Of a stretch of 64,000 nucleotides of DNA, positions 1 to 42,333 are shown piece by piece. Origin of the DNA: a virus (Duplodnaviria; Caudoviricetes). Each line of letters opens with the position of its first letter. The first letter of the stretch is position 1. The notes under the pieces are model-generated. The model was not told the DNA's origin. It was given only the letters and a program-made list of their open reading frames with translations, and made no database searches. The position numbers were made by a program, and so were the translations under genes. Location: IMG/VR virus record IMGVR_UViG_3300033073_001607, positions 2,419 to 66,418 of that record; one strand, given 5' to 3'.

Positions 1-813
1 CGGTGGGAGCACGTGAACCTCGACAAGCGGGCGCCACACATCCTCTGCCAGCTCGGCTCGCCACCGAAGAGGCCTCGCAAGAACGGCAAGGTGCTCCGGA
101 TCCCGCTCTTCGGGATGGCGCTGAAGACGCTGACGGCGCTCTCGTCGAAGCTCCGGAAGGAAGAGCGGACGGGGACGATCTTCCGGTCCAAGACCGGCTG
201 CTACCGGACGAAGGGGAGGGCGGTCGAGCCGGACTCGTGGAAGGCATGGCTCGCAGAGGCCGGCATCGAGCGCAGGGTGCGCTTTCACGATCTCCGCCAC
301 ACCTGCGCCACCCTGCTCCTGAACGGCGACCTGGGCCGAAAGTGGAGCTACGAGGAGGTCAAGGAACTCCTCGGCCACTCAAGCGTGAAGGTCACCGAGC
401 GCTACGCCAAGGTCCTCGGGACGCTCGCCGAGGGCGCCGCCGCAGAGATGCGGAAGTCGACGACCAGGTCGCGCAAGAAGCTCCCAAACAAGGGCGGGAA
501 TGGAGCGGCTCCCAATGCATCGGAACGCATCCAAGCGTTGAGAATCATTGAGAGGCGCGGATCGGATTCGAACCGACGTATGACGGTTTTGCAAAGCGGG
601 GACACTCCGAATGATCCCGCGTGCTTTGACGACGTCGCGCTCCTTTGCCGCTCCATCATTGAAATCGCGGCCGATGGCGGCGACTTCGCGTGGACGAAGG
701 TGATCGAACTGGTCTCCGCTGCATGGGACCAGGCCGACCGCTCACGTCCAATGAATGCGTACGACCTCGACAGCCGATGCCCAGACCATGAGCTGCGTCG
801 CGCCGGTCGGTAG
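1..813 (+). CDS. int: Tyrosine integrase, 5'-truncated by the window edge
   Basis: Frame open from base 1 (RWEHVNLD); catalytic motifs RFHDLRH, LLGH, TERY; ORF continues 72 codons past the att core. Confidence 0.95.
   Translation, partial: RWEHVNLDKRAPHILCQLGSPPKRPRKNGKVLRIPLFGMALKTLTALSSKLRKEERTGTIFRSKTGCYRTKGRAVEPDSWKAWLAEAGIERRVRFHDLRHTCATLLLNGDLGRKWSYEEVKELLGHSSVKVTERYAKVLGTLAEGAAAEMRKSTTRSRKKLPNKGGNGAAPNASERIQALRIIERRGSDSNRRMTVLQSGDTPNDPACFDDVALLCRSIIEIAADGGDFAWTKVIELVSAAWDQADRSRPMNAYDLDSRCPDHELRRAGR
552..595 (-). tRNA. 3' half of tRNA-Cys(GCA): attP homology segment, not a complete tRNA
   Basis: Minus strand reads TTTGCAAAACCGTCATACGTCGGTTCGAATCCGATCCGCGCCTC: GCA anticodon loop, T-arm GTCGG-TTCGAAT-CCGAT, acceptor strand CCGCGCC plus U73; no matching 5' half. 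Confidence 0.88.
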
Positions 814-1089
814 CGATACGTAGACCTGTTCGGCGGTCCTGAACGCGAACCCCGTCTCACCGGCGTAGTGCTTGAGCCTCTTGGTGACGCCGCTCGTGGC
901 CGGCGGGAGGATGTGAAACCCGTTGCTGCCTGTCGGGACGGCGATGGTGTTGTCGCCCGACGCGAGCGGATAGCTCACTGGACCAGCCGCCGGGCCGTTG
1001 GTGTTCGTCATGGCCTCCGGTTCGTAGGTCTGGTCGGTACCCTCGCCGGAGCTCGTGATGGTGATCTGGGTAGTCTCAGTGATGGGCAT
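742..1089 (-). CDS. Hypothetical protein, 115 aa, Thr-rich, last gene of the late/glycosylation operon
   Basis: GGAGG RBS before ATG at 1089; overlaps the end of the upstream oxidoreductase. Confidence 0.75.
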   Translation of the reverse strand: MPITETTQITITSSGEGTDQTYEPEAMTNTNGPAAGPVSYPLASGDNTIAVPTGSNGFHILPPATSGVTKRLKHYAGETGFAFRTAEQVYVSLPTGATQLMVWASAVEVVRIHWT

Positions 1090-1999
1090 CGCGGGCCTCC
1101 TGTTGTCGGTCTTGGAGTTGTTGGGCTTGGTCGAGGAAACCGACGACGTCGGCCCCAAAACGGCCGAAGCGCCAGTCGGTGCGACCGGTGCGGACGGCCT
1201 CTGCAAACGCGCGTACGGCCAACGTCAGCGGACGCTCGGGGGAGATGTCGACGGGGTGGCCATCGACTCGGAGCTTGTGCTCGGCGAGGTCGTCGTAGTG
1301 AGCGGTTCGGTCTCCGGACTGGACCCATAGGCTCCGCGTCTTGGCGGGAGCACAGTTGCTAGCTGTGATCAGCGAAGTAACCGTCGCGGACTCGCTGGAG
1401 ATGTCCACGCCAGCACCATGGCCCTCACGACGAAATTCGCGGACCCACTTCGGCACGATCCGCTCGCCGGGCGGCACCAGCCCGAGTGTCATCGCCACAT
1501 CATGCGGGCCATAGTCCCAGAGCGCGGAGTAGTCCCGATGGGGCCCAGGACCTTCGCCGACAGACAAGATGGTCTTGCCGTTCCAGCTTGAGACGACGGC
1601 GCGGAGAGCCTCGTACGCGGGCGCGAAGATGTGCTGGTGGTTGACGAGGAGGGGGACGGCCACACTCCATGCGGCTGAGACTATGTGACCCGCTTCCTCA
1701 TCGGAGAGCGCCAGCGGCTTCTCGATCATGACGGGCCGGCCATGATGCAGCAGCGAGCAGCAGAGATACTCGCGTTCGCCTGGCGGTGAAGCCATCACGA
1801 ACGCGTCGACATCGAGCGCAAGCAGCGCTCTGGTCCCGGCCTCGACGACCTGCACGCCACTCAGGTACTGCCGCGCCTCATCCGGACACGACTTCCCAAC
1901 ACCTGCAACGTGGGTGACGACGCAGTTCCCAGCCTCGAGAGCGGCGGGGATGTACCGCCACCCCCACGCGCCGCAGCCGATGAGCGCGAGGCGGATCAT
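1076..1999 (-). CDS. Gfo/Idh/MocA-family oxidoreductase (putative NDP-sugar ketoreductase)
   Basis: IRLALIGCGAWG Rossmann motif, MIEKPLA motif, WDYGPHD; ATGA overlap with upstream gene. Confidence 0.9.
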   Translation of the reverse strand: MIRLALIGCGAWGWRYIPAALEAGNCVVTHVAGVGKSCPDEARQYLSGVQVVEAGTRALLALDVDAFVMASPPGEREYLCCSLLHHGRPVMIEKPLALSDEEAGHIVSAAWSVAVPLLVNHQHIFAPAYEALRAVVSSWNGKTILSVGEGPGPHRDYSALWDYGPHDVAMTLGLVPPGERIVPKWVREFRREGHGAGVDISSESATVTSLITASNCAPAKTRSLWVQSGDRTAHYDDLAEHKLRVDGHPVDISPERPLTLAVRAFAEAVRTGRTDWRFGRFGADVVGFLDQAQQLQDRQQEARDAHH

Positions 2000-3081
2000 G
2001 CAGCGGCGACCGATGGCTCGACGTAAGCCTTTTTCGCCCACCCAAAGAACCGCCGAAGCCCGATCTCGAGCTCGACGCGCGGCGCATAGCCGACGTGAGC
2101 GCGGATCTTCGAGATGTCCGGGCACCGACGCTGCGGCTCGTCCGCGGGGTAGCTGTCGGGGTGCTCGATGGTCTCGAAGTGGACGTCGGTGCCGGTGATG
2201 CGGCCGACCGAGATCGCCAGGTCCCGCATCGAGATCTCCGGCGTAGGGTTGCCGACGTTGTACGGCTCGCCGGCCTTGCCATCGACGAGCACCTGGAGGC
2301 ATCCGCGGATCCCATCCGTGACGTAGCAGAACGTCCGCGTCTGCTCGCCGGTGCCGTAGACGTGGAGCGGCTGGCCATCGACGACGCGAGCGGCGAAGTT
2401 CGGGAGCACGCGGTAGTCGATCTTCTGCATGCCCGGACCGTAGAAGTTGAACGGCCGGATGATCGAGCTATGGACTCCGTGCTGCTCATGCTCGACGCGC
2501 ACCATCATCTCGCCGAAGCGCTTGCTCTCGTCGTAGCAGGCGCGCGGTCCGAGACAGGCCACGTGCCCCTTGTACGCCTCGTTCGTGGGGACGTGCTTCG
2601 TGTCGGGGTCGCCGTAGATCTCGCTCGAGGAGAAGAACGCGAGCCGACAGCCGGGGTTCAGTCGCGCGATGTCGAGCACGTTCCGCGTCCCGATCGTCGC
2701 GACCTGGTACGTCTCCACCGGGTACTTCCGGTAGTAGTAGGGGCTCGCGATGCCGGCGCAGTGGAGGATGAAGTCGATCTGCCGCTCCGGCGTGAACGGC
2801 TTGATGATGTCGTGCTTCACGAATGCGACGTGAGGCCGAGGCGTGCCGTCATCGCCGTACGGTCCAGCGGTGATGAGGTTGTCGAGGACGACGAGCTCGA
2901 CGGGACGCACGCCAGCGGGCTCGAGGAACCGCGCGTTGAGCCTGACGAAGACCTCGGTGAAGTACCGTCCGAGGAACCCGCGGCCACCGGTCAGCAGCAC
3001 GCGCCGTCCGCTGAAGCGCTCCCAGAACTCGCGCGGCAGTCCGTCGATGATCTCGTCGATGTCGCTCATGAGCAGATGCAT
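1996..3081 (-). CDS. uxs: UDP-glucuronate decarboxylase (UDP-xylose synthase)-like extended SDR
   Basis: TGGRGFLG, SSSEIYGDP and GPRACYDESKR (YxxxK), RPFNFYGP, QTRTFCYVTD, DEPQRRCPDI. Confidence 0.88.
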   Translation of the reverse strand: MHLLMSDIDEIIDGLPREFWERFSGRRVLLTGGRGFLGRYFTEVFVRLNARFLEPAGVRPVELVVLDNLITAGPYGDDGTPRPHVAFVKHDIIKPFTPERQIDFILHCAGIASPYYYRKYPVETYQVATIGTRNVLDIARLNPGCRLAFFSSSEIYGDPDTKHVPTNEAYKGHVACLGPRACYDESKRFGEMMVRVEHEQHGVHSSIIRPFNFYGPGMQKIDYRVLPNFAARVVDGQPLHVYGTGEQTRTFCYVTDGIRGCLQVLVDGKAGEPYNVGNPTPEISMRDLAISVGRITGTDVHFETIEHPDSYPADEPQRRCPDISKIRAHVGYAPRVELEIGLRRFFGWAKKAYVEPSVAAA

Positions 3082-3100: not shown

Positions 3101-4342
3101 TCAACGCGCTGAGTCGATGATGCGAACCGTGGGCAGCGGTACGATGCACGTGCCGCCGGCCGCTCGATACCAGGTGAGTTTGTCGATGATGCTGTCGGCG
3201 AAGTTCCACGCGAGGATGACGACGTAGTCGGGCTTCGTCTCCTCGATCGCCGAGCTCGGACGCACCGGAACGTGTCCGCCGGGGAGCCATCGGCCTTGCT
3301 TGAGCGGGCTGTCGTCGACGACGTAGTCGAGGAAGCTCTCGATGCCGAACGTCCGCAGCAGCGTCGTCGCCTTGGCTGGAGCTCCGTACCCGACGATCGA
3401 CCGGCCGGCCATCTTCGCGCCGTTGAGCAGTCGGATCAGCTCGTTGCGCCGCTCCTCGATGGTGTCTGCGAAGCGGTAGAACACACCCTCAGGGTCTCGC
3501 ATGAGGCCCATCTTTCGCTCTTCGGCGATGAGGTCCGCTGCTCCGATGGAGCACGGCAGACCCGGCGTCGGCGAGACGGTCACGCGGATGGATCCGCCGT
3601 GCGTGTCCACGCGTCGTGCATCGACGAGCGACATCCCAAGGTCCCAGAAGAACCGGACGAGTGGCTCGACCGAGTGAACCGACAGATGCTCGTGGTAGAT
3701 GTTGTCCACGAGAGTCCTCTGGAGGACATCGACGAGGTAGCCGACCTCGAAGACGAACACGCCCGCCGGGTCAAGCAGGCGCTTCACGCCACGCGCGATG
3801 CCGCGGAGGTCGTCGGCATGAGCAAAGACGTTGTTGGCCACGACGAGGCGGGCCCGGCCCTTCGCTCCGAAGATGCGGGCTGCCACGTCCTCGGTGAAGA
3901 ACTCCGGCCACGACTCGATCCCGTCGGCCGATGCAGCCGCGGCGATCTTCTCGGCCGGCTCGATGCCGAGTACCCGCGCACCGCCGTCACGCATGAAGCG
4001 GAGCATCGTCCCGTCGTTGCTCCCGATCTCGACGACGAGGTCCCCGTTGCGGACATGCTTCGCCAGCATCTCGTCGGCGTACCTGCGGAAGTGCTCGACG
4101 AAGACGTGGCTCGTGCCACTGACGTAGACGTAGTCACGGAAGAGTCGGTCTGGATCGACGACCACCGGGAGCTGCACGTGGCCGCAGTCGCGACACGCCG
4201 AGAGCCACAACGGAAACTTGTCCTGCTCCTTGCCCGGCGCGGTCGGAAACTCGTTCGCGAGCGGCGTCGGCGGAAGGTCGAGCACCTTCGTCAGGAAGGT
4301 CGAGTAGCAGAGTCGGCAGTCGTTCCGGACGTAAAAGCTCAC
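3101..4342 (-). CDS. NDP-sugar C-methyltransferase (TylC3/TcaB9-type 3-C-methyltransferase family)
   Basis: N-terminal CRLC...CRDC Zn site, EIGSNDG SAM motif, NNVFAH, IYHEH, HGGSIR, YGAPAKA, ILAWNF. Confidence 0.93.
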   Translation of the reverse strand: MSFYVRNDCRLCYSTFLTKVLDLPPTPLANEFPTAPGKEQDKFPLWLSACRDCGHVQLPVVVDPDRLFRDYVYVSGTSHVFVEHFRRYADEMLAKHVRNGDLVVEIGSNDGTMLRFMRDGGARVLGIEPAEKIAAAASADGIESWPEFFTEDVAARIFGAKGRARLVVANNVFAHADDLRGIARGVKRLLDPAGVFVFEVGYLVDVLQRTLVDNIYHEHLSVHSVEPLVRFFWDLGMSLVDARRVDTHGGSIRVTVSPTPGLPCSIGAADLIAEERKMGLMRDPEGVFYRFADTIEERRNELIRLLNGAKMAGRSIVGYGAPAKATTLLRTFGIESFLDYVVDDSPLKQGRWLPGGHVPVRPSSAIEETKPDYVVILAWNFADSIIDKLTWYRAAGGTCIVPLPTVRIIDSAR

Positions 4343-4797
4343 CGGACGTACTCGCGCACGATCTCCGGCGTCAGGAACGGCACGCGGACGACGTCCTTCT
4401 CGTGCTCCTCGTGACTGCGTACGCGCTTGGCGAACGTCAGGATCAGCGAGTCGTCAGCGAAGAGCATCGCGTGCTCGATCATCGGCGGCGTGAAGAACAT
4501 CTGCCCAGGACCGAACTCCATCGGCTTGGGGATCGACATCGCGCCGACGGGTCGCTCGAAGTAGAAGACTCGACCACTTGCCACGTACGTGTAGTGGAAG
4601 TCTTCGCGGTGGTAGTGCTGCGCTCGAACGGAGCCGCGCTTGCTCGTGATGGCAGCGATGCTCTGAATCTTCTTGAGGAGAAGGTTCTGGATGATGCCAG
4701 CTTCGTTCAAGAATGGCTCAGGCAGCGGTACCAGCGGATCGCCAGGCCAGTCCTCGTTGTCGACGCTGGTGGTGTACCACTCATGCCTAGAACTCAT
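4339..4797 (-). CDS. Cupin-fold protein (putative NDP-sugar epimerase/isomerase)
   Basis: RGSVRAQHYH...HYTYVASG and PPMIEHAM cupin motifs; ATGA-coupled. Confidence 0.8.
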   Translation of the reverse strand: MSSRHEWYTTSVDNEDWPGDPLVPLPEPFLNEAGIIQNLLLKKIQSIAAITSKRGSVRAQHYHREDFHYTYVASGRVFYFERPVGAMSIPKPMEFGPGQMFFTPPMIEHAMLFADDSLILTFAKRVRSHEEHEKDVVRVPFLTPEIVREYVR

Positions 4798-5918
4798 TCC
4801 GCAGCTCCCTTCATCGCCATGGTGTGTGCACTGACGACCCGCTCGAGTCGCTCGGCCAGCGTGTTCCAGTTGCACGACTCTGCGAGCGCTCGGCACTTGT
4901 CGACGTTCTCCGCTCGCCAGTGGGCGTCGGTGAGGCCGCGGGTGACGAGGTCAACGAACGCGTCGCGCTGAAGCCCACCCTCCGTCATCGGCGCCGCCCC
5001 ACCGTAGATGTCCCCGAGCGCGTCGATGTCGGTGATGACTGGAAGGCATCCGCTCGCGCACGCCTCCAACGTCGTGACGCTGAAGCCCTCGGTGTACCGG
5101 ATGGTGTCGCACGGGTACGCGAGCACCTGCGCGTGCTCGAACTCCTGGCGCATGCGGTCGCGCGAGACCGAGCCGACGTGCTCGACGTCCCACTTGGGAC
5201 CGGCGAGCTTGCTCATGGCGTAGCGGATGTACCGCTTGCGCTGCGCGATCTCGAGCAGGTCCGGGTGGACGTTTGGGCCTGTCGCCTCGTAGTCGTCGAA
5301 GTCGGCCGCCTGGAAGTTGTAGAAGCACCGGAGCGACGCGTGCGGGACGCAGCGCTTGATCTCCGGCCACATCTCGAGCAGCCGGTGGAGCCCGCGGTCG
5401 GCGCTCGATGCCCAGATGACCCGCCCGTCGATGCGCTTGTCCTGAGCGTATTGCGTCGGGTCGCAGCCGTTCGGCTGGACCTCCCACGCGCGGACGTTCG
5501 GCGCCTGCTTCTTGAGGAACTCGAGGTGGTGCGCCGATGGGCTCGTCACCACATCGACGTGCTCCTCCCAGCCCGGCTGGCAGTAGGCAAAGTCGTTGAG
5601 CTGCTGGTTCGCCATCCGCAGCGGTCCGGCTGGCACCTGGCGCAACAGATCGGGTTCGTTCCACGCGTAGACGACGTCGCACTCGGCGACGAGCTTCGGG
5701 TTGTCGAGCTGCCGCAGTTGGATGCCGCGCCACTCATTGGCCGTCTGCGGCTGGCCGACGAGGAGCATGACCTCGTGGCCACGCCGCTGCATCGCCTGCG
5801 CGTACTCGACGCACGAGAGCTCGGAGCCGGTGAGGCCTCGTGGCGAGGTGTAGAGGTTGTCGAAGTCGAGCGGGCGCTGGCCGAGCGAGAAGCTGCCATA
5901 TAGGAATGCGATGCGCAT
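4794..5918 (-). CDS. GT-B (GT4-like) glycosyltransferase
   Basis: GLTGSELS, WASSADRGL, YTEGFSVTTLEACASG (Ex7E motif). Confidence 0.9.
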   Translation of the reverse strand: MRIAFLYGSFSLGQRPLDFDNLYTSPRGLTGSELSCVEYAQAMQRRGHEVMLLVGQPQTANEWRGIQLRQLDNPKLVAECDVVYAWNEPDLLRQVPAGPLRMANQQLNDFAYCQPGWEEHVDVVTSPSAHHLEFLKKQAPNVRAWEVQPNGCDPTQYAQDKRIDGRVIWASSADRGLHRLLEMWPEIKRCVPHASLRCFYNFQAADFDDYEATGPNVHPDLLEIAQRKRYIRYAMSKLAGPKWDVEHVGSVSRDRMRQEFEHAQVLAYPCDTIRYTEGFSVTTLEACASGCLPVITDIDALGDIYGGAAPMTEGGLQRDAFVDLVTRGLTDAHWRAENVDKCRALAESCNWNTLAERLERVVSAHTMAMKGAAE

Positions 5919-6163
5919 CAGGTGCCTTCCTTCCGCAGGACGGCCATGTTCTCGAACGTCTCGCGACACCTGCGAAGGTCTCGACCAGAGTGATCGTTGA
6001 GCGGCAGGAGGCACTGCCTGCATGTCCCGCGATCCCGCACACGCGCTGTGCCCGTAACTTCGCTGACGTGCGGCCCATCGTGCTCAGGGGCGAGTACGCA
6101 TCGCGTGCGCTCAGGCGTTTCCCAGATGCACGTGAACGCCTTTGCCTCGTTTTGGTGATTCAT
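5918..6163 (-). CDS. Small Cys/His-rich hypothetical protein, 81 aa
   Basis: TGATG overlaps at both ends; RCVLAPEHDGPH and CRQC..H motifs. Confidence 0.6.
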   Translation of the reverse strand: MNHQNEAKAFTCIWETPERTRCVLAPEHDGPHVSEVTGTARVRDRGTCRQCLLPLNDHSGRDLRRCRETFENMAVLRKEGT

Positions 6164-9100
6164 CACGCAGCCTCCCGTGTGAAGTCGGCACGAGGCTGGT
6201 ACGGGACCAGCGGAGCGACGATGACGCGCTCGAGTTCCTCGCGCATTGCCGAGACCCAGTCCTCGGCGAGGGCGTCCAGACCAAACACGTTGCGCGCGTG
6301 CGTCGCGACCCCGTACCGCGTCGTGATCCAGTCCGTGTCAGGCACCGTCAGTGCCCGGACCACTTCATCGACGAAGGTGGCCTGATACTCCGGCGAGAGC
6401 CAGTCGCCGTCGATGCGTACGCCGTACTCGCCGACAGTCTCGTTCAGCGCAGCAATGCTGCTCGTGACGATGCGGAGCCCGGCGGCCTGAGCCTCCATGG
6501 CTGTGATGCACGACGTCTCCGAGAACCACGTCGGGTATGCCCATACGCCAGCAGACAGGAACTCGGTCGCGAGGGTCTGCTGGTCGACCTTCCCACGCAT
6601 GGTGACGCCCATCGGAGCGAGGTCGGCGATCTGCTTCTCGAGGTACGCGATGCCCTTGAGCTGGTCGGTGTCGCCGCGAGCCTGGGCCATCTTCTTCCAG
6701 TTGAAGAAGCCGTAGAAGATGTCGAGCGTCGCGTCCGGCACCCGCTTCCGGATCTCCGGCCAGACCTTCAGCAGGACAGGGAGCCCGCGGTCAGGGCTCG
6801 ACGAGTAGACGACCTTCTTCGTGTTGCGCTCGACGGGGCGGTCGAACCGCGAGAGGTCGATGCCGTTGCGCGTCTGCATGATCTGCGCGCGCGGGAGGTT
6901 GTGGTGCTTCTGGAGGAAGTCGCAGTGCCACTCGGACAGGCCGAGGACTCGATCCGCCTTCAGCAGTGACGCGTGACGACCGTTGCCGGCGAAGATGTCG
7001 TGGACCCAGAGGAACCGCGTTTTCGCGGTCACCGGCACATCGAGCAGGCTCGCGTCACGCCATGCAATGAGCACATCGCAGGATCCAGCGAGCGACAGGT
7101 GAGCGCTCTGGCGGTACTCGACGCCGTCGAAGATGCCCTCGCCCCACTTCCCGGTGCTCGTGTAGACGCGGACGCGGTGCCCGAGGAGCGACAGCCGTTT
7201 CGCGAGCTCGACCACCATCGTCTCGGAGCCGCCGATGCCCTTGGTCTTGTGGACCAGCGGGTTCCAGTCCTGCCACGCGTCGCCGCACGCGAAGACGATG
7301 TCGAGCGAGCCTTCGCTGCACTTCGGCGCTTCGAGCCGCGCCTCGCAGTAGACGTTGCCCTGACCAGGAACGTCCTGGTGGCTCGCGCTCTCGACGATGT
7401 AGCTATCCTTGACCCACCAGCCATCCTCGCGGAAGTGACCGGCGACGCTCCACACCGTCGGCGCGATGAGGTGGGCGTGCGGTAGCGGCGCGTTCCAAGG
7501 CTGGTTCTCCTCGTCAGCCCATCGCCACGGGTGGGCCCACGGGATGAACTGGCCGCGCATCCACGAGCCGTGCGGGGTCACCAAGACCATCCGCCCGCCA
7601 GCCTTCAGAGCTCGACGAGCCGGCGCGATGATGTCGCGAACGTGGTCTTTGACGTGCTCGTAGGTGTCGCAGCTCGTGACGACGTCGAAGGTCTCGCCGC
7701 CGAGGTCGACCTCGCTGAACTTGCCGACGTGGAAGCGGCAGCCGGTCTTGAACTCCTCGGCCTTGCGACGCGCGAGAGCGACCGACGACTCGCAGAGGTC
7801 GACGCCCGTGACGTTGTAGCCTTGGAGGCCCCAGCGGTTGATGATGCTCCCGTCGGAACAGCCGAAGTCGAGGACCTTGTCGGTCTTCTTCAGCGTTGCG
7901 ATCGTGAGGTCGGAGCGGTCGAGGAGCTGACCGTTGAGCGGGAGCGGGAGCGGCACGCCGGTCTCCACTGTCGGATCGGCCGGCGCGTTGAACTGCTGCG
8001 TCGTCTCCGGTGCGTCCATCCACGCGGTCATCTGACGCGTTCGCGCGAGAGCTCGCTCGATGACCGGCGAATGGCGAGCGCGGTACGGTGCGTTCGCGAG
8101 GAACGTCTCAGCCGCGAGGATCTCGTCATGGAGGACGTACTCTTTCCAGAGCATGATCGTCGCCGCCTCGACCTGGGCGTCGGTCAGAACGACGGGGAGA
8201 TCCTCGATGTCGGTGGCCTCAGGAATCGCGAACGCTCGGGCGTGCGGAGACCGGCGCGCGATCGGGAAGTGCTCCGGCTTCACCCCTCGCGGATACTCCT
8301 CCGGCCGCGAGTAACGCGCCCAGCCCTCGCTCGGCCCGTCGGCGCCGCCGAACTCTGCGAGCGCGACAGCGACCGATTCCGGTGGCGCATCGGTGGCCGC
8401 GGCGAGTCTGGAGAGCGCTGCCTTCGCCTCGTCTCGCGCGATAATGCGCTCGAATACCTTCCGGTTGTAGACGAGGTTCGCGTCGTTCGGTGACTGCTTG
8501 AGCGCGGTCTCGGCATGCTCGAGCGCCCGGCGTGCGTCGCCGAGCTGCGAATAGGCCATCGTCAGATAGACATGGATGTCGAGGTCACGCTCGAGCGGGT
8601 TGACGAAGAGCATCGTCTTCGTCGGCGGCAGCGACAGGCCGACGCGCCCGAAGTGCGCGCACTTCTGCCAGTTTCGCCGCGTGTCCGTACCCGCGACCGC
8701 GAGCTGGTAGAAGCCTCGAGCGGCCGCGAAGTAGCACTCACCCCAGTCCTCGCGGACCTCGATCGCGCGGAATGACCAGACAATCCCCTCCTGGATGCGT
8801 CCGCGGCCGTAGGCGATCTCGGCGAGCTTGAGCGCCGCCATCGTCTTCTCGTGGTCCCAGCCCGAGATCCCGACGTATCGCGACAGCCACTCGACGGCCT
8901 TGTCGGGCTGGTTGTTGTTCGCGTACTCGAGACCCAGGTAGTAGAACTGTCGGGCGTCCTTCGAGCCGTCCTGCTCGACCATCTTCTGCAAGATGCGAAG
9001 GTTTCGCCCGGCCTCTTGGGGCTTCTTGCTCCGCTGGCGATGGTGCTCGACGACGACGTCATCGCACGGGACGATCGCGAGGGTGCCCGGATCGGTGGGG

Positions 9101-9633
9101 ATCATCACCTCATGGACGGGGTTGGTCCACCGCATCGCATCGACGCGCGAGAGGAGCCGTTCGCGGTAGTGCAGGCAGATGCAGCGCCCGCGCTCGTCGT
9201 AGACGTACTCGTACGGGAAGAGGTAGCACCAGTCTCGATTGCCTTGGTTCGCGTCACCGACCGCGACGAGCTTCGCGAGGTGCTCGGCACCACTGACGAC
9301 GTCGTCGGAGTCGATCCACATCACCCAGCGCTTCGTCGCGAGGGAGAAGCACTTGTTGCGGGCGTCGGAGAAGTCGTTGATCGCGCCGGTCTCAGGATCG
9401 TTGCATCCGGTGTAGACCTCGAAGACGTCAGCGTACTTCCGCGCGATGTCCGGCGTGCCGTCGGTCGAGCCCGTGTCGAGGACCACGATCTCCTCGACGT
9501 GCGGACGCACCGATTGGAGGCAGGCTTCGAGCAGCCCAGAGGCCTCCTCGTTGCGGACCAGAATGCACACCGAGATCGGCGCGCGACCCTTCGGCCATCC
9601 CTCGCCGGGGATGTCCAGAACCTTCCCGTCCAT
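6163..9633 (-). CDS. Multidomain glycosyltransferase: GT2 + TPR + SAM methyltransferase + GT-B (GT4-like), 1156 aa
   Basis: ISVCILVRNE/VLDTGSTD/FSDARN/WIDSDD (GT2); RQFYYLGLEY-type TPR helices; VLDFGCSDG/VTGVDL/DTYEHV (MTase); IGGSET/YSSSPDRGL/FSETSCITAMEAQA (GT-B); GGAGG RBS. Confidence 0.93.
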   Translation of the reverse strand: MDGKVLDIPGEGWPKGRAPISVCILVRNEEASGLLEACLQSVRPHVEEIVVLDTGSTDGTPDIARKYADVFEVYTGCNDPETGAINDFSDARNKCFSLATKRWVMWIDSDDVVSGAEHLAKLVAVGDANQGNRDWCYLFPYEYVYDERGRCICLHYRERLLSRVDAMRWTNPVHEVMIPTDPGTLAIVPCDDVVVEHHRQRSKKPQEAGRNLRILQKMVEQDGSKDARQFYYLGLEYANNNQPDKAVEWLSRYVGISGWDHEKTMAALKLAEIAYGRGRIQEGIVWSFRAIEVREDWGECYFAAARGFYQLAVAGTDTRRNWQKCAHFGRVGLSLPPTKTMLFVNPLERDLDIHVYLTMAYSQLGDARRALEHAETALKQSPNDANLVYNRKVFERIIARDEAKAALSRLAAATDAPPESVAVALAEFGGADGPSEGWARYSRPEEYPRGVKPEHFPIARRSPHARAFAIPEATDIEDLPVVLTDAQVEAATIMLWKEYVLHDEILAAETFLANAPYRARHSPVIERALARTRQMTAWMDAPETTQQFNAPADPTVETGVPLPLPLNGQLLDRSDLTIATLKKTDKVLDFGCSDGSIINRWGLQGYNVTGVDLCESSVALARRKAEEFKTGCRFHVGKFSEVDLGGETFDVVTSCDTYEHVKDHVRDIIAPARRALKAGGRMVLVTPHGSWMRGQFIPWAHPWRWADEENQPWNAPLPHAHLIAPTVWSVAGHFREDGWWVKDSYIVESASHQDVPGQGNVYCEARLEAPKCSEGSLDIVFACGDAWQDWNPLVHKTKGIGGSETMVVELAKRLSLLGHRVRVYTSTGKWGEGIFDGVEYRQSAHLSLAGSCDVLIAWRDASLLDVPVTAKTRFLWVHDIFAGNGRHASLLKADRVLGLSEWHCDFLQKHHNLPRAQIMQTRNGIDLSRFDRPVERNTKKVVYSSSPDRGLPVLLKVWPEIRKRVPDATLDIFYGFFNWKKMAQARGDTDQLKGIAYLEKQIADLAPMGVTMRGKVDQQTLATEFLSAGVWAYPTWFSETSCITAMEAQAAGLRIVTSSIAALNETVGEYGVRIDGDWLSPEYQATFVDEVVRALTVPDTDWITTRYGVATHARNVFGLDALAEDWVSAMREELERVIVAPLVPYQPRADFTREAA

Positions 9634-9828
9634 CGTCGTCCCTCCAGACGGCGCCGTCGGCTGTGCCAAGCAGTGCCAGATCCTGCGTAGCACTTGGCAC
9701 ATGACGGCACAAGTGCATGCTGCACTGATGGCGACCCCCACAAACGACGAAACGCCCGCCACCCCTCGCGAGAGGAGCAGCGGGCGCTGATGGCCGCCGG
9801 TTGGCGGCGGCTGTTCTAATGCCTGTGG

Positions 9829-10647
9829 TTACGTAGCTTTCTCGAGTGCCAGAGTGAGCGCCTTGCGCGTCAGCGGACCATAGATCCCATCAGGGACCAG
9901 GCCGCTCGCACGCTGGAACGAGACGATGGCAGCCGTGGTCTTTGGGCCAGCCCACCCGTCGATTGTGCCAGGGTCGTGGCCAAGTTGTGCCAGTGCCCGC
10001 TGTATGCCGAGCACCGTGCGGAGGTCGATCTCCTCGGTCTCGCGCTCGCCGGACTCGATCTCACCGCCGTTGAGCCGGGCCATGAGTTCCTGCCACCGGG
10101 CCCCGGTACATGCGCGGTTTACCGCGTCCTCGAGTTCCTGGACCGTGATGGCCCGGTCGCCGTTCTTGTCGAAGCCGGCGTTCGGCTCGAAAGCCCAGCC
10201 GAGGTGCTCACCTGGCTCGCCCTTCGTCTTCGGGTTCGGATCGGCGGTGAGGACGTAGCTCGGGTCGCCAGCGTACTGGACGAGCGCCGGGAGGAACGTC
10301 GCGACGTACAGACCGCCGATCGTCCAGAGGTGCCCGACGTGGGGCCGGTAGTAGGCCTCGACGTATGGGAGTTGCTGCGTCGCCGTGAGCTGCCTGAACA
10401 TCGCATGTCCGGCCCGCCAGCCGACACCCGGAAGGATGAACGGCATGAACTGGATCAGCCCGCTCGCGTTCCACCGCTTCTCTGGCGGGAGGTGCTTCGG
10501 GTTGTCGTTGTGAGCGTTCGCGCGGACGTCGCTCTCCGACTTCATGACTCGCATCATCTTCTCTGGATCGGACTGCAGCCGCTCGGCGACAGCACGCAGC
10601 GCCGGGAAGAAGTCGTCTGTGATGTCTCGCGAGTAGATCGGGATCAC
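9829..10647 (-). CDS. Endolysin: lysozyme/SLT-like catalytic domain + EF-hand-like loop + C-terminal peptidoglycan-binding domain
   Basis: KSESDVRANAHN...ASGLIQFMP; DKNGDRAITVQEL; IQRALAQLGHDPGTIDGWAGPKT...FQRASGLVPDGIYGPLT; AAGGAGG RBS with GTG start. Confidence 0.88.
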   Translation of the reverse strand: MIPIYSRDITDDFFPALRAVAERLQSDPEKMMRVMKSESDVRANAHNDNPKHLPPEKRWNASGLIQFMPFILPGVGWRAGHAMFRQLTATQQLPYVEAYYRPHVGHLWTIGGLYVATFLPALVQYAGDPSYVLTADPNPKTKGEPGEHLGWAFEPNAGFDKNGDRAITVQELEDAVNRACTGARWQELMARLNGGEIESGERETEEIDLRTVLGIQRALAQLGHDPGTIDGWAGPKTTAAIVSFQRASGLVPDGIYGPLTRKALTLALEKAT

Positions 10648-10889
10648 GGCTCCTCCTTCTTCGTCTGGAACCCTGCTGCTCGCTCCGGCGTCACCATGTG
10701 CTGGCCGCTGCAATACTCGCAGTTCTCGCACGCCGGACACGGCTGCATCGTGATTGCCTCCATGTTTGCCGCCTCTGCGGCCAGCATCCTCTGAGAAGCA
10801 CGCTCGATCTCAGCCTTTGCCGATGCGCTCAGGATCTTGTCATGATCAAGGACGAGTGTGGGTTCGCTCTGGATTCGCCGTTCGCTCAT
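10644..10889 (-). CDS. Hypothetical protein with CxxC...CxxC motif
   Basis: Coupled overlaps at both ends; CPACENCEYC. Confidence 0.7.
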   Translation of the reverse strand: MSERRIQSEPTLVLDHDKILSASAKAEIERASQRMLAAEAANMEAITMQPCPACENCEYCSGQHMVTPERAAGFQTKKEEP

Positions 10890-29676: not shown

Positions 29677-31206
29677 TTACTCGACTTGGTCGAGGGCAAT
29701 CGCGAACTGCAGGGCGTTGTCGATGGGTCGCAGCGGGATCCTCGCGCTCATGCGCGTTCCCGGCGTGGTCTCACGCTGCACGATGGTCCCAGCCTTGATG
29801 ACCGGCACGTCTTGGAGCAGGTCGTTCAGGTCGTAGACGTCGATGAGGCCGAAGATGGCGCCTTTGAAGATGCGTGGAGTGACGACGAGCGGACCGGGTG
29901 CACGAGCACCATCCGCAGGATCGTCGGCGATGCGCTTCCCTGCGAAGTTGAGCGACGCCTTGGCAAGCAGGTCGTCACCGAAGAAGTCGCAGATCGTGAC
30001 CTTGTGAGCGTCGCGGATCCGGTAGTCGTTGTTCGATCCGTTGAGCGACCGTGTGGTGATGCGGTTGACGAGGTACGTCGAGCCGTTCGGGTTGACGCCG
30101 ATGGGAGACACACCGTTGTTGAGTGCGCTCTTGATGTTCGTCCGCGACGGGATGGCGCTGTCGAGGCGAGGTCGCGGGACGAGATGGAAGGGCGCGGTCA
30201 CGGCGTCGTTGCCGAAGCCTGCGAAGTTCGTCCGCGGGTTCGGCTTCGTCTCGAAGAGCGTTACCTTCGCCGCGTGGTCGGCTGCGAGTTCTGCGGGCGT
30301 CCACGGCGACTTCTCGCTCCACACGATCTCCGCTCGCGCCGCATTGCGACCGGTGGCGAGCGTGTTGGTGTTCGAGATGGTGTCGGTGGAGCCTGCGATG
30401 GCGCGCTGGCGAATGCCAGTCGTCGGCAGAGCCTGCGTTCCGATCTGCGTGACGAGCGCTCCGAACTGGGTGGCGTCGTTCGCCGCGCTGACGATGTAGT
30501 AGTAGCGGCTCGGGTTGATGGTCGAGAGCGCCGTGGTGCTGCTGTCAGCAGTGGTACCGCCAGCCATCGCGAGGTCAGTCGCCGTCGGGACGGACATGCC
30601 GATCGACGGGGAGATCTGCGGCATGTAGCGGATGTCGTTGCCGCGCGTGCCCTTCTGCTTTGCCGTCAGCGTGACGAAGCCCCAGATGCCGGTGGCCGTT
30701 CCCGCTGCCGTGACAGGCCAGTGGGTCTTCTTGTTGATCTCCGTCGCCATCTCGGTCGCGATGTCGCTCGAGATGTCGAGGTTGTCGATCGAGATCTCGG
30801 CGTACTCCTCGTCGAGGTAGATCCGCGCAGAGCCTGCCGCTGTGGCGGTGCCGACGAAGCGAATGGTGCCGGTCGCCTGCGCGCCAGCGGACTCAGTGAC
30901 CGCGATGGCCCTGAGGGTCGTGTCGCGGTTGATCTTCGTGAAGCGTCGGAACATCCGGTGGAGCTCGGAGCCAGCGCCGAAGAGGTTGATCGCGTCCGTC
31001 TCCGTCTGGAGCTGCACGATCGAGTCGGGGCCATACACGACGGTGTCAACCGTCGCCGAGCCTGCGGACGTCTTGTTGCCGACGAGGAGGACCTCGATGG
31101 GAGTGCCAGAGCCGGCGGCGTCGCCTTGGGCGAAGTTGACCTCGAGGTATGCACCGGGAACCGGATCGTTTGCCGCGAGACCGGTGAGCGAAATCGAGCC
31201 GGGCAT
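29677..31206 (-). CDS. Contractile tail sheath protein (Mu gpL-like)
   Basis: VPGAYLEVNFAQG, LFGAGSELHRMF, LTAKQKGTRGND, LNNGVSPI, RITTRS motifs. Confidence 0.93.
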   Translation of the reverse strand: MPGSISLTGLAANDPVPGAYLEVNFAQGDAAGSGTPIEVLLVGNKTSAGSATVDTVVYGPDSIVQLQTETDAINLFGAGSELHRMFRRFTKINRDTTLRAIAVTESAGAQATGTIRFVGTATAAGSARIYLDEEYAEISIDNLDISSDIATEMATEINKKTHWPVTAAGTATGIWGFVTLTAKQKGTRGNDIRYMPQISPSIGMSVPTATDLAMAGGTTADSSTTALSTINPSRYYYIVSAANDATQFGALVTQIGTQALPTTGIRQRAIAGSTDTISNTNTLATGRNAARAEIVWSEKSPWTPAELAADHAAKVTLFETKPNPRTNFAGFGNDAVTAPFHLVPRPRLDSAIPSRTNIKSALNNGVSPIGVNPNGSTYLVNRITTRSLNGSNNDYRIRDAHKVTICDFFGDDLLAKASLNFAGKRIADDPADGARAPGPLVVTPRIFKGAIFGLIDVYDLNDLLQDVPVIKAGTIVQRETTPGTRMSARIPLRPIDNALQFAIALDQVE

Positions 31207-31586
31207 CAGACGTCACCCTTTCCGCCGGACTTTTCCGGCTTCTTCGGCTCAGCCGGAGGCGCCTTTGCGACCTCGGCAGCGGCCTTCTTCTCGCGGAACG
31301 CCTTGATGGTCTCGGTCGTCTCGGCGTCGAAAGCCTCCGAGAACGCAACACCGCAGGCCGTGGCGGTCACCTCATCGGCGGGCCAGAGATCGCCATCGCG
31401 AACGGCCTTCACGAGGTCTGGATGGGAGGCCATCGCCTGCGGCTCGCCAGTGGGGCACCACGCCCAGCGACCGGGGAGCACTTCCTGCCAGCGGCGACCA
31501 ACGAATCGGCGGATCCCACGCTCTTGTGCGTGCGGATCTGTGACCAACGCGCTGCCTCGCGCGTAGAAACGGAGCCTGTTGTCCAT
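31206..31586 (-). CDS. Hypothetical protein (Mu gp38-like position)
   Basis: Coupled to the sheath start; LVKAVRDGDLWP motif. Confidence 0.7.
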   Translation of the reverse strand: MDNRLRFYARGSALVTDPHAQERGIRRFVGRRWQEVLPGRWAWCPTGEPQAMASHPDLVKAVRDGDLWPADEVTATACGVAFSEAFDAETTETIKAFREKKAAAEVAKAPPAEPKKPEKSGGKGDV

Positions 31587-33802: not shown

Positions 33803-34909
33803 TCACGCCGACGTCGCGGACTTGATGAGGTAGCCGGCCGACGAGGCGACGATCTTCGCGTCCTCGCTGACGGCGACCTTGGCATAGTGTCCGCCCTTCT
33901 TGCCCGTCGTCGCATCGAACCACTCGGTCGTGACCGGGTCGTCCACGCTGCGGAAGATCGAGGCGAAGGACGCCATACGCTTCGAGGGACGAGTCGCGAC
34001 GCGGACGATGCCGAAGTCGAGGCCCCAGATGCGCGAGTAGCTCGCCGTCTGACCTTCGTTTGCGGTCTGCTTGCGCGCCGCGCCGATGAAGAGGTCCGAC
34101 AGGCCGAGGTAGTTCGCGATCTGCGCCCGGTTGAGCAGGCCGTTCTGCGTGTACTTCTGGATGTCGAGGAGCATCGGGTGCCGCGAGAGGACGTTGAAGA
34201 CCTCGAGCGAGCAGAAGCCGACGATCTTGGTCGCACCTGGGCCGTTCCAGAGCGCCGCGATGCCGGTCTGGATGTCCTTGATGGGGTTGCCACCGGTGGA
34301 GCTGTCCCACTGGTTCGAGCCAGACAGCGTCGTCGAGCTGTCGTAGTTCGCCGCCGTGGTGAGGAGGGTCGCCAGGCGGAGCTCGCGACGGAAGGCGATG
34401 CCCTCGTTGATCGCCTCGATGAGGTCCACGCGCTCGTCGAACGCGGGATCCTGGTTGTCGAGGGTGTCCTGGGACAGGAAGTTCTGGTAGCCGTAGTCGA
34501 GCAGCGAGTAGGTGTCGCTCGTGCGCGACTCGCTGATCTCGTTGGCGTGTGCCCGCTCGCCGAGGAGGTCCGAGGGGTACTCGAACCGCTCGCGCTTCGG
34601 GTAGATGGCGAACTTGTCGGTCTTCTTGTTGACCGGCACGGCCATCACGAGGCGCTCTCCGATGTACTCGTCGTTCGTGTACATCACCGACATGTTGTTG
34701 AAGAACGTGTCGGAGTGAACGGAGCTGGGCGACACGCCGCGCACCTGGAGGCGGTAGGTCTCGTCCAGCGCCTTGCGGACAGCCGAATCCGACGTCTTCT
34801 CGCGATACGCCGCCATGAAGCGTTCGTAGCGCTCGCGCTTTTCGGAGCGCTGGTTGAGCACGATGTCTGCCATCGTGAACTGACGGGGCGAGTTCTCGGA
34901 GGTCGTCAT
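33803..34909 (-). CDS. Major capsid protein
   Basis: 368 aa after the decoration gene; YIGERLVMAVPV, WDSSTGGNPIKDI, AGYLIKSA; AAGAAGGA RBS. Confidence 0.88.
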   Translation of the reverse strand: MTTSENSPRQFTMADIVLNQRSEKRERYERFMAAYREKTSDSAVRKALDETYRLQVRGVSPSSVHSDTFFNNMSVMYTNDEYIGERLVMAVPVNKKTDKFAIYPKRERFEYPSDLLGERAHANEISESRTSDTYSLLDYGYQNFLSQDTLDNQDPAFDERVDLIEAINEGIAFRRELRLATLLTTAANYDSSTTLSGSNQWDSSTGGNPIKDIQTGIAALWNGPGATKIVGFCSLEVFNVLSRHPMLLDIQKYTQNGLLNRAQIANYLGLSDLFIGAARKQTANEGQTASYSRIWGLDFGIVRVATRPSKRMASFASIFRSVDDPVTTEWFDATTGKKGGHYAKVAVSEDAKIVASSAGYLIKSATSA

Positions 34910-34937
34910 GGTCGTTGTCCTTCTTGGAGTTGGTGGG

Positions 34938-35348
34938 TCACGCGCAGCCGGCGGCGAACGCGCCCAACGCGAGCTCGACGAAGTCGTTGTCGACGCCGCT
35001 CTCGATGAACTGGCCGACGAGGTACTTGACGGTGGTGCCGCCGCCGATCGTCTGGTTCTCGAAGCCGTCGGTGCCGGCGATGGCGTACTCGCCACGCGTC
35101 GCGGTACCGCTCGCCTTCACGCGGAGCGTCCCGCCTCGAGCGAGGGCCACGCGGACACGCGAGGTGCCCGAGGTGTTGCCGGTGACGGTCTCGTCGGCGA
35201 CGCCGATGACCTTGCTGTTGGCCACGGCGACGTCGACCTCGTTGGCGGCGGAGATGTAGACGCCGACACCCTTCACGATCGCGGCGCTGGCCTTGACGTT
35301 GAAGGTGGCGAACGTAACGCCATTCGGCTTGGATCCTGCGGTGCTCAT
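34938..35348 (-). CDS. Capsid decoration/cement protein (DUF2190-like)
   Basis: Small Ala/Gly/Val-rich beta protein, IGVADET...GGTLRVKA. Confidence 0.75.
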   Translation of the reverse strand: MSTAGSKPNGVTFATFNVKASAAIVKGVGVYISAANEVDVAVANSKVIGVADETVTGNTSGTSRVRVALARGGTLRVKASGTATRGEYAIAGTDGFENQTIGGGTTVKYLVGQFIESGVDNDFVELALGAFAAGCA

Positions 35349-36364: not shown

Positions 36365-36427
36365 TAGGCTCCTTTGACGACGAGGTCTCGCTCGCGGAGT
36401 GCCCTGTCTCGACGCTCGCGCTCGCGA

Positions 36428-37801: not shown

Positions 37802-37809
37802 GCGCTGCC

Positions 37810-42160: not shown

Positions 42161-42333
42161 TCGAGACGTTCTGGGCTCTTGACGCGCTCTGGCACGCTCG
42201 GTGATCTCGTCAGGCGCGGTGACAGAGAGCCGAGTCGAGCGCTTCGCCCGAGGACGTCGCTGCTCTCACCCTCACACGCTGAACGCCCGCCGAATTGGCG
42301 TAACGTTGCGCAAAACGCGCCGGGCGTGCGAAT

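Follow-up and report, generated by a model that had tools for sequence, protein, structure and literature searches.

The stretch of viral DNA analysed here (64,000 nucleotides, hereafter the window) encodes a 1156-residue protein in which four folded catalytic or binding modules keep their signature residues, and which leads a conserved cassette of seven genes on the same strand. We suggest, with moderate confidence, that it is a soluble enzyme of the cytoplasm and assembles a short methylated glycan on another protein, most probably one of the structural proteins of the phage. The longest frame in the ORF listing starts from a GTG and has 1199 codons (6163-9762, minus strand). Homologues span 95% of this frame, beginning at M44; the IMG gene call (P0123, 1156 residues, minus strand) covers 6163-9633; and GGAGGG lies 7 nt upstream of the ATG at 9633. 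This ATG is thus the true start, and the limits 6163-9633 given in the initial annotation of the sequence are correct.

That annotation had also proposed a protein combining GT-A (GT2), TPR, methyltransferase and GT-B modules, and had suggested a domain assignment with AlphaFold and Foldseek. Pfam, an AlphaFold2 model (mean pLDDT 86.7) and Foldseek confirm the four modules, mapping them to GT-A, TPR, class I SAM methyltransferase and GT-B folds. In the model, GT-A occupies residues 18-197, with strands and helices above pLDDT 90. Helical repeats follow at 210-428, and a disordered stretch (430-480) links them to a small helical unit at 485-549; the methyltransferase, of Rossmann fold, spans 568-766 and the GT-B 778-1139. 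The Pfam matches, numbered on the 1199-residue frame and not on the 1156-residue protein, include TPR_14, TPR_1 and TPR_2 at 270-431 (E about 1e-5 each), Methyltransf_11/25 at 630-726 (Methyltransf_11 with E 5e-17 and 62.7 bits vs a cut-off of 21.2), and Glyco_transf_4 and Glyco_trans_1_4 at 843-1137 (E 6e-10 and 4e-8). The helical repeats are also recognised when the family profile is compared with consensus TPR proteins (E 3e-14 to 2e-10). Across an alignment of 26 homologues, D108, D110 and D111 of the GT2 domain are unchanged, and D589, D594, G595, D612 and D656 of the methyltransferase, which carries the motif LDFGCSDG, are invariant. The PDB matches of the methyltransferase domain (UbiG, WbdD and others) are generic; those of the GT-B domain in Foldseek are MshA, PimA, GlgM and BshA, with a TM to target of 0.65-0.71. 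Seven homologues carry an intein at residues 1041/1042.

Features of the window discussed in the text, in order of position; indented rows lie within the four-domain protein
Feature	Position	Strand	Basis
Integrase, C-terminal part (temperate phage)	1..813	+	Phage_integrase E 4e-16
GFO/IDH/MocA oxidoreductase (candidate sugar ketoreductase or dehydrogenase)	1076..1999	-	Pfam E 1e-9
NAD-dependent sugar-nucleotide dehydratase/epimerase (extended SDR)	1996..3081	-	Epimerase E 2e-43
NDP-hexose C-methyltransferase (zinc-binding N-domain, SAM domain, C-methyltransferase C-domain)	3101..4342	-	Methyltransf_14 E 5e-46, Methyltransf_13 E 1e-16
Cupin protein (candidate NDP-sugar epimerase or ketoisomerase)	4342..4788	-	tblastn 60% identity to L058 cupin
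Stand-alone GT4 glycosyltransferase	4794..5918	-	Pfam Glycos_transf_1; EX7E in translation
82-codon ORF, four Cys	5918..6166	-	Start/stop codons overlap both neighbours
Four-domain protein, 1156 aa (GT2 - TPR - helical linker - SAM methyltransferase - GT4)	6163..9633	-	ORF, Pfam, model, IMG call
 GT4-type GT-B domain, residues about 778-1139	6217..7302	-	Pfam, Foldseek
 EX7E motif E1039...E1047	6493-6519	-	Both Glu invariant in homologues
 Class I SAM-dependent methyltransferase domain, residues about 568-766	7336..7932	-	Pfam
 Small conserved helical unit, residues about 485-549	7987..8181	-	AlphaFold2 model
 TPR-like helical repeat domain, residues about 210-428	8350..9006	-	Pfam, model, profile, Foldseek
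 GT-A (GT2) domain, residues about 17-200	9034..9585	-	Pfam Glycos_transf_2 64-186 (1199-aa numbering), E 4e-16
 DxDD motif W-I-D108-S-D110-D111	9301-9312	-	Translation
Endolysin-like gene directly upstream of fusion, late-operon end	9829..10809	-	PG_binding_1 E 1e-15, endolysin PHROGs

Judged by sequence, the GT2 domain is specifically nearest to protein and peptide glycosyltransferases. When a family profile is used, the N-terminal part finds its best PDB matches in GmaR (E 3e-30), SunS (6e-20) and ThuS (6e-16), and enzymes of this type make up the top four PDB sequences both by profile and by single sequence; the relatives named in the initial annotation were the right ones. Foldseek puts SunS/ThuS first, with an alignment of about 400 columns, and superposes the TPR-like domain, which lies directly C-terminal of GT-A, on their helical domain. 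In NCBIfam, the SunS family S-glycosyltransferase TIGR04195 scores highest, at 51 bits vs a cut-off of 350. The fusion shares the DTGSTD, NDFSxARN and DxDD motifs with GmaR and SunS/ThuS (PDB 22ao, 7msn, 7msp, 7msk), the GT2 domain being aligned to GmaR and SunS via DTGSTD, NDFSxARN and IDxDD; it differs from them in that identity is about 20-30%, in its two extra catalytic domains, and in lacking a flagellin or glycocin context. GmaR modifies Ser/Thr of a protein, the host flagellin, while SunS and ThuS modify a peptide Cys, and the SunS gene adjoins the acceptor gene sunA. In OGT and SPY, too, a TPR precedes a GT-B, as seen with Foldseek, so that the GT-B and not the GT2 could be the priming enzyme of the fusion.

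Downstream of the fusion, the cassette continues with the 82-codon ORF, which has no Pfam match, and then with the stand-alone GT4, the cupin, the sugar C-methyltransferase, the SDR and the GFO/IDH/MocA oxidoreductase. It is placed at the late-operon end of a temperate myovirus, with lysis genes on one side and the integrase, whose N-terminal part is found in L114, outside the window, on the other. The GT-B domain and the stand-alone GT4 (its ATG at 5918 preceded by GGAAGG) are 35% identical (E 3.7e-25), which bears out the paralogy claimed earlier, and both motif pairs quoted for it are found in the translations. Among the sugar-supply proteins, the cupin, whose gene is carried by 33 loci, matches Cupin_2 weakly in Pfam; the best NCBIfam match of the SDR is dTDP-glucose 4,6-dehydratase, at a score far under its cut-off, and the oxidoreductase is 43% identical to its L048 homologue.

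The search of IMG/VR for the same architecture, also suggested in the initial annotation, yielded a family of 295 loci, with more than 120 full-length protein clusters, in which the modules are fused or split. The family is modular, since the methylase is a separate gene in some loci; in these split forms the helical unit and the methyltransferase stay together as one gene (L057 13443-14627, matching fusion residues 442-857, and L052 13536-14807). The existence of fused and split forms links the modules functionally. The closest homologues (P0003-P0036) are 64-89% identical to the window protein, and among the homologue neighbourhoods read only L033 (63% identity) has a context like that of the window. 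Carriers span sizes between 40-kb podoviruses and contigs of more than 400 kb. MAGs of many different phyla also contain full-length relatives, which fits phage carriage and names no host. When the cassette was compared by blastn with 50,697 phage records, no match was found. One relative (L107 3448-6006) is matched by tblastn but has no Pfam match at E 1e-4, and its clade was therefore counted for context only.

Gene context in these relatives supports the view that virion proteins are glycosylated. In 28 of the 80 IMG/VR loci fetched (24 without identical copies), a major capsid gene precedes the gene on its own strand by at most 700 nt, and the same order of capsid gene and fusion is found in the GenBank podovirus MW202524. 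Three capsid families are represented (Phage_capsid_4, phrog_1005 and SU10_MCP); as each adjacency is limited to one clade of the tree, the number of independent events is few. In one capsid family adjoining the gene a ...DCLT C-terminus is conserved, while the window capsid ends in ...SATSA; this is suggestive only and was not counted as evidence. A collagen-like ORF is located upstream in 33 of 110 loci (29 viral and 4 MAG), and ends 4-200 nt ahead of the gene in 11 of them. These ORFs are 500-2575 residues long and, with the exception of L040, have Thr at about 30-60% of Y positions; their head is TNF/C1q/BclA-like, an assignment that rests on many concordant matches with Z 9-12, the AlphaFold2 model of the head being weak (pLDDT 59). 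A chromosomal homologue from Blastocatellia adjoins a collagen gene as well, and in the tree the window protein nests within the collagen-associated clade.

The window phage itself (record of 66.4 kb, 86% complete by CheckV) shows no such partner. There is no collagen-like ORF in the six frames of the window or in the 2.4 kb by which the record exceeds it, and no homologue of the fibre head domain in the window. Gly-x-Thr, Gly-x-Ser and Gly-x-Thr-Gly are not enriched overall vs per-protein residue shuffles (89 observed, 102 expected), and no window protein lies above z = 2.1 for Gly-x-Thr. Nor is an acceptor gene seen adjacent to the fusion, the genes upstream being lysis genes and neither capsid nor fibre genes. 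The virion acceptor proposed in the initial annotation is thus favoured by the capsid and collagen-like fibre neighbours of relatives, but finds no counterpart here; with no evident acceptor, this particular window is less informative.

In the mechanism we propose, the TPR domain would hold the acceptor protein for the GT2 domain, which resembles GmaR, SgtA and SunS and would place the first sugar on Ser, Thr or Cys; the fused GT4 and its stand-alone paralogue would then extend the chain with more sugars. One added sugar is probably a C-methyl-branched deoxy sugar produced by the SDR, cupin, C-methyltransferase and oxidoreductase, and the fused methyltransferase would O-methylate a sugar, possibly stopping chain growth. 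This order of action, in which GT2 primes, the GT-B domains extend and the methylase caps, is one that we infer. The cassette may be expressed alongside the late genes, during virion-protein synthesis, and the relatives probably glycosylate their capsid protein or the Thr-rich collagen-like fibre. More tentatively, the fusion might be the core of a widespread, self-contained and horizontally mobile phage system. This system would start a rare-sugar glycan on surface proteins of the virion, lengthen it and cap it with methyl, the target being the capsid, collagen-like fibres or, in this phage, an unseen protein. One polypeptide would then take three or four steps in succession, with the TPR/helical spacer perhaps setting the site or the length of the glycan.

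The absence of a visible acceptor within the phage would also fit lysogenic conversion, where a prophage-expressed cassette glycosylates a flagellin, pilin, S-layer or collagen-like protein of the host and so alters the cell surface, for instance blocking the adsorption of other phages. The integrase flanks the cassette on one side and the remaining prophage on the other, and GmaR, the top solved-structure match, modifies a host flagellin; a position next to the integrase is that of a classical moron, and the usual site of lysogenic-conversion genes. We nevertheless regard this as unlikely, as many other phages, some represented by contigs of 150-436 kb, have the same gene within head-morphogenesis modules and beside fibre genes, and as the cassette is oriented like the lysis and tail genes and no promoter-like site separates it from the lysis genes (a weak test, the scan being crude for a 65% GC genome). 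Terminator-like matches in the same interval are no commoner than in shuffles.

It seems to us distinctly improbable that the glycosyltransferases synthesize or modify a polysaccharide, acting on a lipid-linked or free glycan (O-antigen, capsule or cytoplasmic methylated polysaccharide), with the methyltransferase terminating chains as WbdD does and the TPR as a mere scaffold. The affinity of the GT2 domain to protein and peptide glycosyltransferases argues against it, it leaves the capsid and fibre adjacency unexplained, and the cassette contains no flippase, polymerase, initiating phosphotransferase or membrane segment. A scan of four stand-alone cassette proteins, which did not treat the cupin, GFO and 82-codon ORFs as frames of their own, found no 19-residue hydrophobic stretch, with Kyte-Doolittle mean maxima of 1.0-1.55; the sole higher value, 2.06, falls within the 43 codons preceding the real start of the fusion gene, and the fusion protein is predicted to be soluble. 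What speaks for a polysaccharide is a loose match of the whole model to the TPR-containing capsule multienzyme 8qoy (E 4.5e-13, TM about 0.2), together with matches of the methyltransferase domain to WbdD (E 2e-5) and of the GT4 domain to the methylmannose polysaccharide mannosyltransferase 7qsg.

Glycosylation of hydroxymethylated bases in the phage DNA is highly improbable: glycosylation of 5hmC DNA by GT-A and GT-B enzymes is known from other phages (Pyle et al., bioRxiv 10.1101/2023.12.21.572611) and this phage carries DNA methyltransferases at 40889-42265, but these lie 30-50 kb from the cassette, a thymidylate-synthase-like hydroxymethylase (PF00303) is absent from the 66.4-kb record (control positive), a Tet/JBP search (PF12851) gave no match, though neither did its control, no DNA-metabolism family recurs among the neighbours of 110 loci, and the TPR and the GmaR/SunS affinity indicate protein acceptors.

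Returning to virion-protein glycosylation, the family represents a compact four-module predicted enzyme, accompanied by a cassette that would supply suitable sugars, and occurs in hundreds of uncultured phages, repeatedly beside the proteins it would modify. In the literature searched, experimental phage virion glycosylation comes from mycobacteriophages only; if our reading is true, virion O-glycosylation would be common among environmental phages and not a mycobacteriophage curiosity. Confirmation would provide a testable general route for coating phage capsids and fibres, with bearing on adsorption, stability, host and immune recognition and phage-surface engineering, and a source of enzymes for methylated, C-branched glycopeptides.

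Several known systems resemble parts of the fusion. WbdA-WbdD of E. coli O8/O9a (PDB 4azs and others) combines GT4 mannosyltransferases with a chain-capping methyltransferase; the pairing is alike, with a methyltransferase match that is weak (E 2e-5) and at the level of the generic class I fold, but WbdA-WbdD modifies a lipid-linked polysaccharide at the membrane. Virion glycosylation in mycobacteriophages was reportedly described by Freeman et al. in 2023. As summarised in later papers (PMC12619734, PMC12363180), phage-encoded glycosyltransferases of Che8, Corndog and Myrna modify capsid and tail-tube subunits; these are separate enzymes without a GT2-TPR fusion, and Mycobacterium phages are absent from the ten best-represented genera of tblastn matches in the 50,697 phage records. 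In C. difficile, SgtA is a soluble protein with a GT-A followed by TPR, a layout which, by its published description, is like that of the GT2-TPR part of the fusion; its gene adjoins bclA3, and it is a Mn-dependent O-GlcNAc transferase that acts in vitro on Thr of the collagen-like BclA3 repeats (PMC7157674). Pairing with a Gly-x-Thr collagen-like protein that has a C1q/TNF-like head recurs in relatives of the fusion, while the window phage, unlike SgtA, has no collagen-like partner; SgtA in turn is a cellular spore enzyme of 358 residues without methyltransferase or GT-B.

What is known of the enzymology of viral multidomain glycan builders comes from A064R of chlorovirus PBCV-1, a soluble, cytoplasmic protein that extends and methyl-caps the capsid-protein glycan (PMC9614988). 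A064R was not identified among the best 50 BFVD matches, several of which are unnamed, and the likeness is one of layout alone. It has 638 residues, lacks a TPR, has a second domain from a separate GT family, and lengthens an existing N-glycan, in contrast to the priming proposed for the fusion. Like the fusion, however, A064R is a single viral polypeptide with two glycosyltransferase domains and a SAM methyltransferase, and is, as had been noted at the outset, a fair architectural analogue (PMC9614988).

The open reading frame at the fusion locus runs on the minus strand from a GTG at 9762 to 6163, and full-length homologues align from residue 44 of this frame, covering only 95% of it. Since these homologue starts agree with the 1156-aa length of the IMG gene product of this record (P0123) and with a GGAGGG lying 7 nt upstream of an ATG at 9633, we place the gene at 6163-9633, the extent given in the initial annotation. 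The four modules proposed there (GT-A, TPR, methyltransferase and GT-B) are borne out by Pfam, which finds Glycos_transf_2, several TPR families, Methyltransf_11/25/23, and Glyco_transf_4 with Glyco_trans_1_4, and by an AlphaFold2 model built with 26 homologues as input (mean pLDDT 86.7). Across homologues of 43-89% identity, D108-x-D110-D111 of the GT-A domain, D589/D594/G595/D612 of the SAM site, and G799-x-GGSE and E1039-x7-E1047 (EX7E) of the GT4 domain are all invariant. The C-terminal domain is indeed a paralogue of the stand-alone GT4, as had been suggested from two motif pairs; the two are 35% identical (E 3.7e-25), and both pairs are present in the two proteins.

Positions of genes in the window and of domains in the 1156-aa fusion protein
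Feature	Position	Strand	Remark
GT-A	residues 18-197		AlphaFold2 model
Helical repeats	residues 210-428		AlphaFold2 model
Disordered linker	residues 430-480		AlphaFold2 model
Small helical unit	residues 485-549		AlphaFold2 model
Rossmann methyltransferase	residues 568-766		AlphaFold2 model
GT-B	residues 778-1139		AlphaFold2 model
GFO/IDH/MocA oxidoreductase	1076-1999	-
Extended SDR dehydratase/epimerase	1996-3081	-
NDP-hexose C-methyltransferase	3101-4342	-
Cupin	about 4342-4788	-
Stand-alone GT4 paralogue	4794-5918	-
82-codon ORF	5918-6166	-	between two GT genes
Endolysin	9829-10809	-	last gene of lysis block
Sheath	29677-31212	-
Major capsid protein	33803-35116	-
Protease	35381-36427	-
Portal	36428-37816	-
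Large terminase	39084-40526	-
Baseplate and fibre-like proteins		-

Seven homologues (P0016, P0022, P0027, P0033, P0038, P0071, P0113), each of about 1450-1550 aa, carry inteins, the inserts being roughly 290-360 aa as judged from subject-coordinate gaps and containing intein/Hint/LAGLIDADG/HNH Pfam domains. All seven sit at one site, between residues 1041 and 1042 inside the GT4 EX7E motif (E-T-S|C; window about 6508-6513). An intein within a glycosyltransferase active site is unusual, and its position singles out this motif as the most constrained part of the fusion protein.

The N-terminal part resembles enzymes that act on proteins or peptides. Compared with solved structures, its family profile matches Listeria GmaR best (E 3e-30), followed by SunS (6e-20) and ThuS (6e-16), and a single-sequence search of the fusion protein returned the identical top four solved-structure sequences. 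Foldseek ranks SunS and ThuS first, with both the GT-A and the helical domain aligned, and in NCBIfam the SunS family comes first, though well under its cut-off; GmaR, SunS and ThuS all glycosylate proteins or peptides. The GT-A plus TPR layout is also shared with Clostridioides difficile SgtA, which has GT-A plus four TPR and is encoded beside bclA3 (PMC7157674). The GT2-TPR unit is frequent among uncultured tailed phages, and also among giant viruses, in a library of viral structures. The GT-B domain matches the GT4 enzymes MshA, PimA, GlgM, BshA and ManT in Foldseek, and matches of the methyltransferase domain are generic (UbiG, WbdD and others). OGT and SPY, too, have TPR followed by GT-B, as Foldseek shows, and for that reason the GT4 domain could be the priming enzyme.

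The record (66,418 bases, linear, with the window at 2419-66418; GC content 65%; CheckV completeness 86%) is that of a temperate myovirus, in which the sugar cassette, beginning with the fusion gene, follows the lysis block without change of strand and an integrase lies beyond it on the plus strand. In a motif scan, a weak test, no promoter-like site was found from the lysis genes to the cassette, and terminator-like matches over this region were no commoner than in shuffles (also a weak test). The 82-codon ORF overlaps the fusion-gene stop with its start and the ATG of the GT4 gene with its stop; it encodes four cysteines, has no Pfam match and was not seen in L033, a related phage locus.

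Relatives of the fusion are numerous and widely scattered. Full-length relatives (42-89% identity, about 1110-1170 aa) fill more than 120 clusters in the protein database, and IMG/VR holds 295 loci, many on contigs of 150-436 kb, the best 80 of which were taken for context analysis. A scan of species-representative genomes found full-length relatives in MAGs of Gemmatimonadales, Anaerolineae, Blastocatellia, Ignavibacteria, Myxococcales and Gammaproteobacteria, as well as in two Chitinophaga isolates. Across the 110 loci compared, cassette genes are the only window genes shared outside the near-relatives (SDR in 41, C-methyltransferase in 33, cupin in 33, GFO in 28); it follows that the cassette travels as a unit between unrelated phages. 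L034, L043 and L051 repeat the order GT fusion, GT4, cupin, C-methyltransferase, SDR, GFO, and L040 does so as far as SDR. The four-module architecture itself recurs in IMG/VR, where Pfam confirms it in the Phage_capsid_4 and phrog_1005 clades described below. Many other loci have a split form, with a GT2-TPR-GT4 protein of about 830 aa, a separate gene that encodes the helical unit together with the methyltransferase, and between one and three additional GT4 paralogues; that the modules are fused in some genomes and split in others argues that they act in one pathway.

Other genes accompany the cassette in relatives. One combining a DUF4379 treble-clef zinc finger, DUF723 and DUF559 (Vsr-like endonuclease) lies between GT fusion and GT4 in L038/L039 (13238-14578) and between the C-methyltransferase and SDR genes in L040, and has the look of a free-standing homing endonuclease. 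In L057 (16952-18502) and five other loci, all without the TylC3-like C-methyltransferase, the GT4 paralogues adjoin a gene for a B12-binding radical SAM enzyme, which might provide another way to a methylated sugar. On several large phage contigs, a response-regulator receiver domain fused to a dual-specificity phosphatase domain is encoded within the cassette (L045 11006-11938, L034 and three other loci), and on large phage contigs a patatin-like phospholipase gene lies beside it (L036 21526-22395 and 11 other loci).

Among the best 80 of the 295 IMG/VR loci, 28 have a major capsid gene at most 700 nt upstream of the fusion on the same strand (24 after removal of identical copies), in the order terminase, portal, scaffold or protease, capsid, GT fusion. 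The capsid is of the Phage_capsid_4 family in 14 (gaps mostly 4-78 nt), of the phrog_1005 type in 9 and of the SU10_MCP family in 5, the last rising to 7 within 870 nt. The complete 42.6-kb GenBank podovirus MW202524 is arranged similarly, with capsid, one small gene, GT2-TPR-GT4, two more GTs and methyltransferases. The phrog_1005-type capsid proteins directly upstream of the fusion in L097, L102, L061, L081 and L056 end in a conserved AGY-x-I-x-DCLT tail, with Cys and Thr, and the window's capsid protein ends in IKSATSA; given the Cys specificity of SunS and ThuS, we consider both tails possible C-terminal glycosylation sites.

Upstream of the GT gene in 29 viral and 4 MAG loci, and in the same orientation, there is a collagen-like ORF of 500-2575 aa, which in 11 loci ends only 4-200 nt before the GT gene. 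With one locus excepted, Thr fills about 30-60% of the Y positions (for example GPTGPQGPTGTIGATG). A C-terminal head is common to seven of these ORFs, and its model matches the TNF/C1q superfamily (Z 9-12; matches include BclA, F-BclA, collagen VIII NC1 and phage fibre tips); collagen-like fibre and head together reproduce the architecture of BclA. The gene pairing likewise recalls sgtA-bclA3, where SgtA adds beta-O-GlcNAc in vitro to Thr of the BclA3 collagen-like repeats (PMC7157674). On a 2.3-Mb contig of Blastocatellia, a cellular homologue is found amid ordinary transport genes, at a distance of 1 kb from a Pfam Collagen gene (L008 8197-8976). Some cellular homologues have a second GT2 domain, GT2-TPR-(MTase)-GT2-GT4, in 1306-1482 aa (L008 10019-14464; L010 9950-13867). 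Besides the Blastocatellia copy they include one from Chitinophaga, which abuts a 3218-aa ORF (L010 13820-23476) with no Pfam match in residues 1-1825.

The GT2-TPR part was used for a FastTree of 81 rows, on which every capsid family has a well-supported clade to itself. The collagen-associated loci form one large group, in which the window protein and that of L033 (68% identity) are nested with support 89. The independent origins of each adjacency are thus few; even so, the adjacency was retained as the capsid proteins grew too different for BLAST to recognise.

Across the family, the evidence favours virion proteins as the acceptors, but nothing in this phage bears on the question directly: the fusion gene comes after lysis genes, not a capsid or fibre gene, an arrangement shared with L033, its nearest relative among the fetched loci; there is no collagen-like ORF in the window or the record's extra 2.4 kb, no fibre-head homologue in the window and no Gly-x-Thr excess in any protein of the phage. 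The acceptor here may be capsid, sheath or fibre proteins, a protein of the host, or one encoded in the 14% of the genome that the record lacks. The main rival is lysogenic conversion, in which the cassette would modify a host surface protein, since the cassette adjoins the integrase. Polysaccharide synthesis is less likely, as the cassette is without a membrane component (no membrane-type hydrophobic segment in its proteins, the fusion, GT4, C-methyltransferase and SDR products being those scanned as separate frames) and the affinity of the GT2 domain is with protein-directed enzymes. DNA hypermodification (bioRxiv 10.1101/2023.12.21.572611) is unlikely: no thymidylate-synthase-like enzyme was found in the record, and among relatives the gene has no recurrent neighbour from a DNA-metabolism family; a Tet/JBP search of the record found nothing, its positive control failing too. 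We favour a soluble enzyme that builds a short methylated glycan on protein, most likely a virion protein.

A literature search found no published work that treats the fusion family, and none that pairs phage GT2-TPR enzymes with genes for capsid or collagen-like fibres. Its known relatives in kind are SgtA/BclA3, chlorovirus A064R (PMC9614988) and, as summarised in two papers, mycobacteriophage virion glycosylation (PMC12619734, PMC12363180); new here are the recurrent adjacency to capsid genes, the occurrence of the four-module enzyme both fused and split, and the position of the intein.
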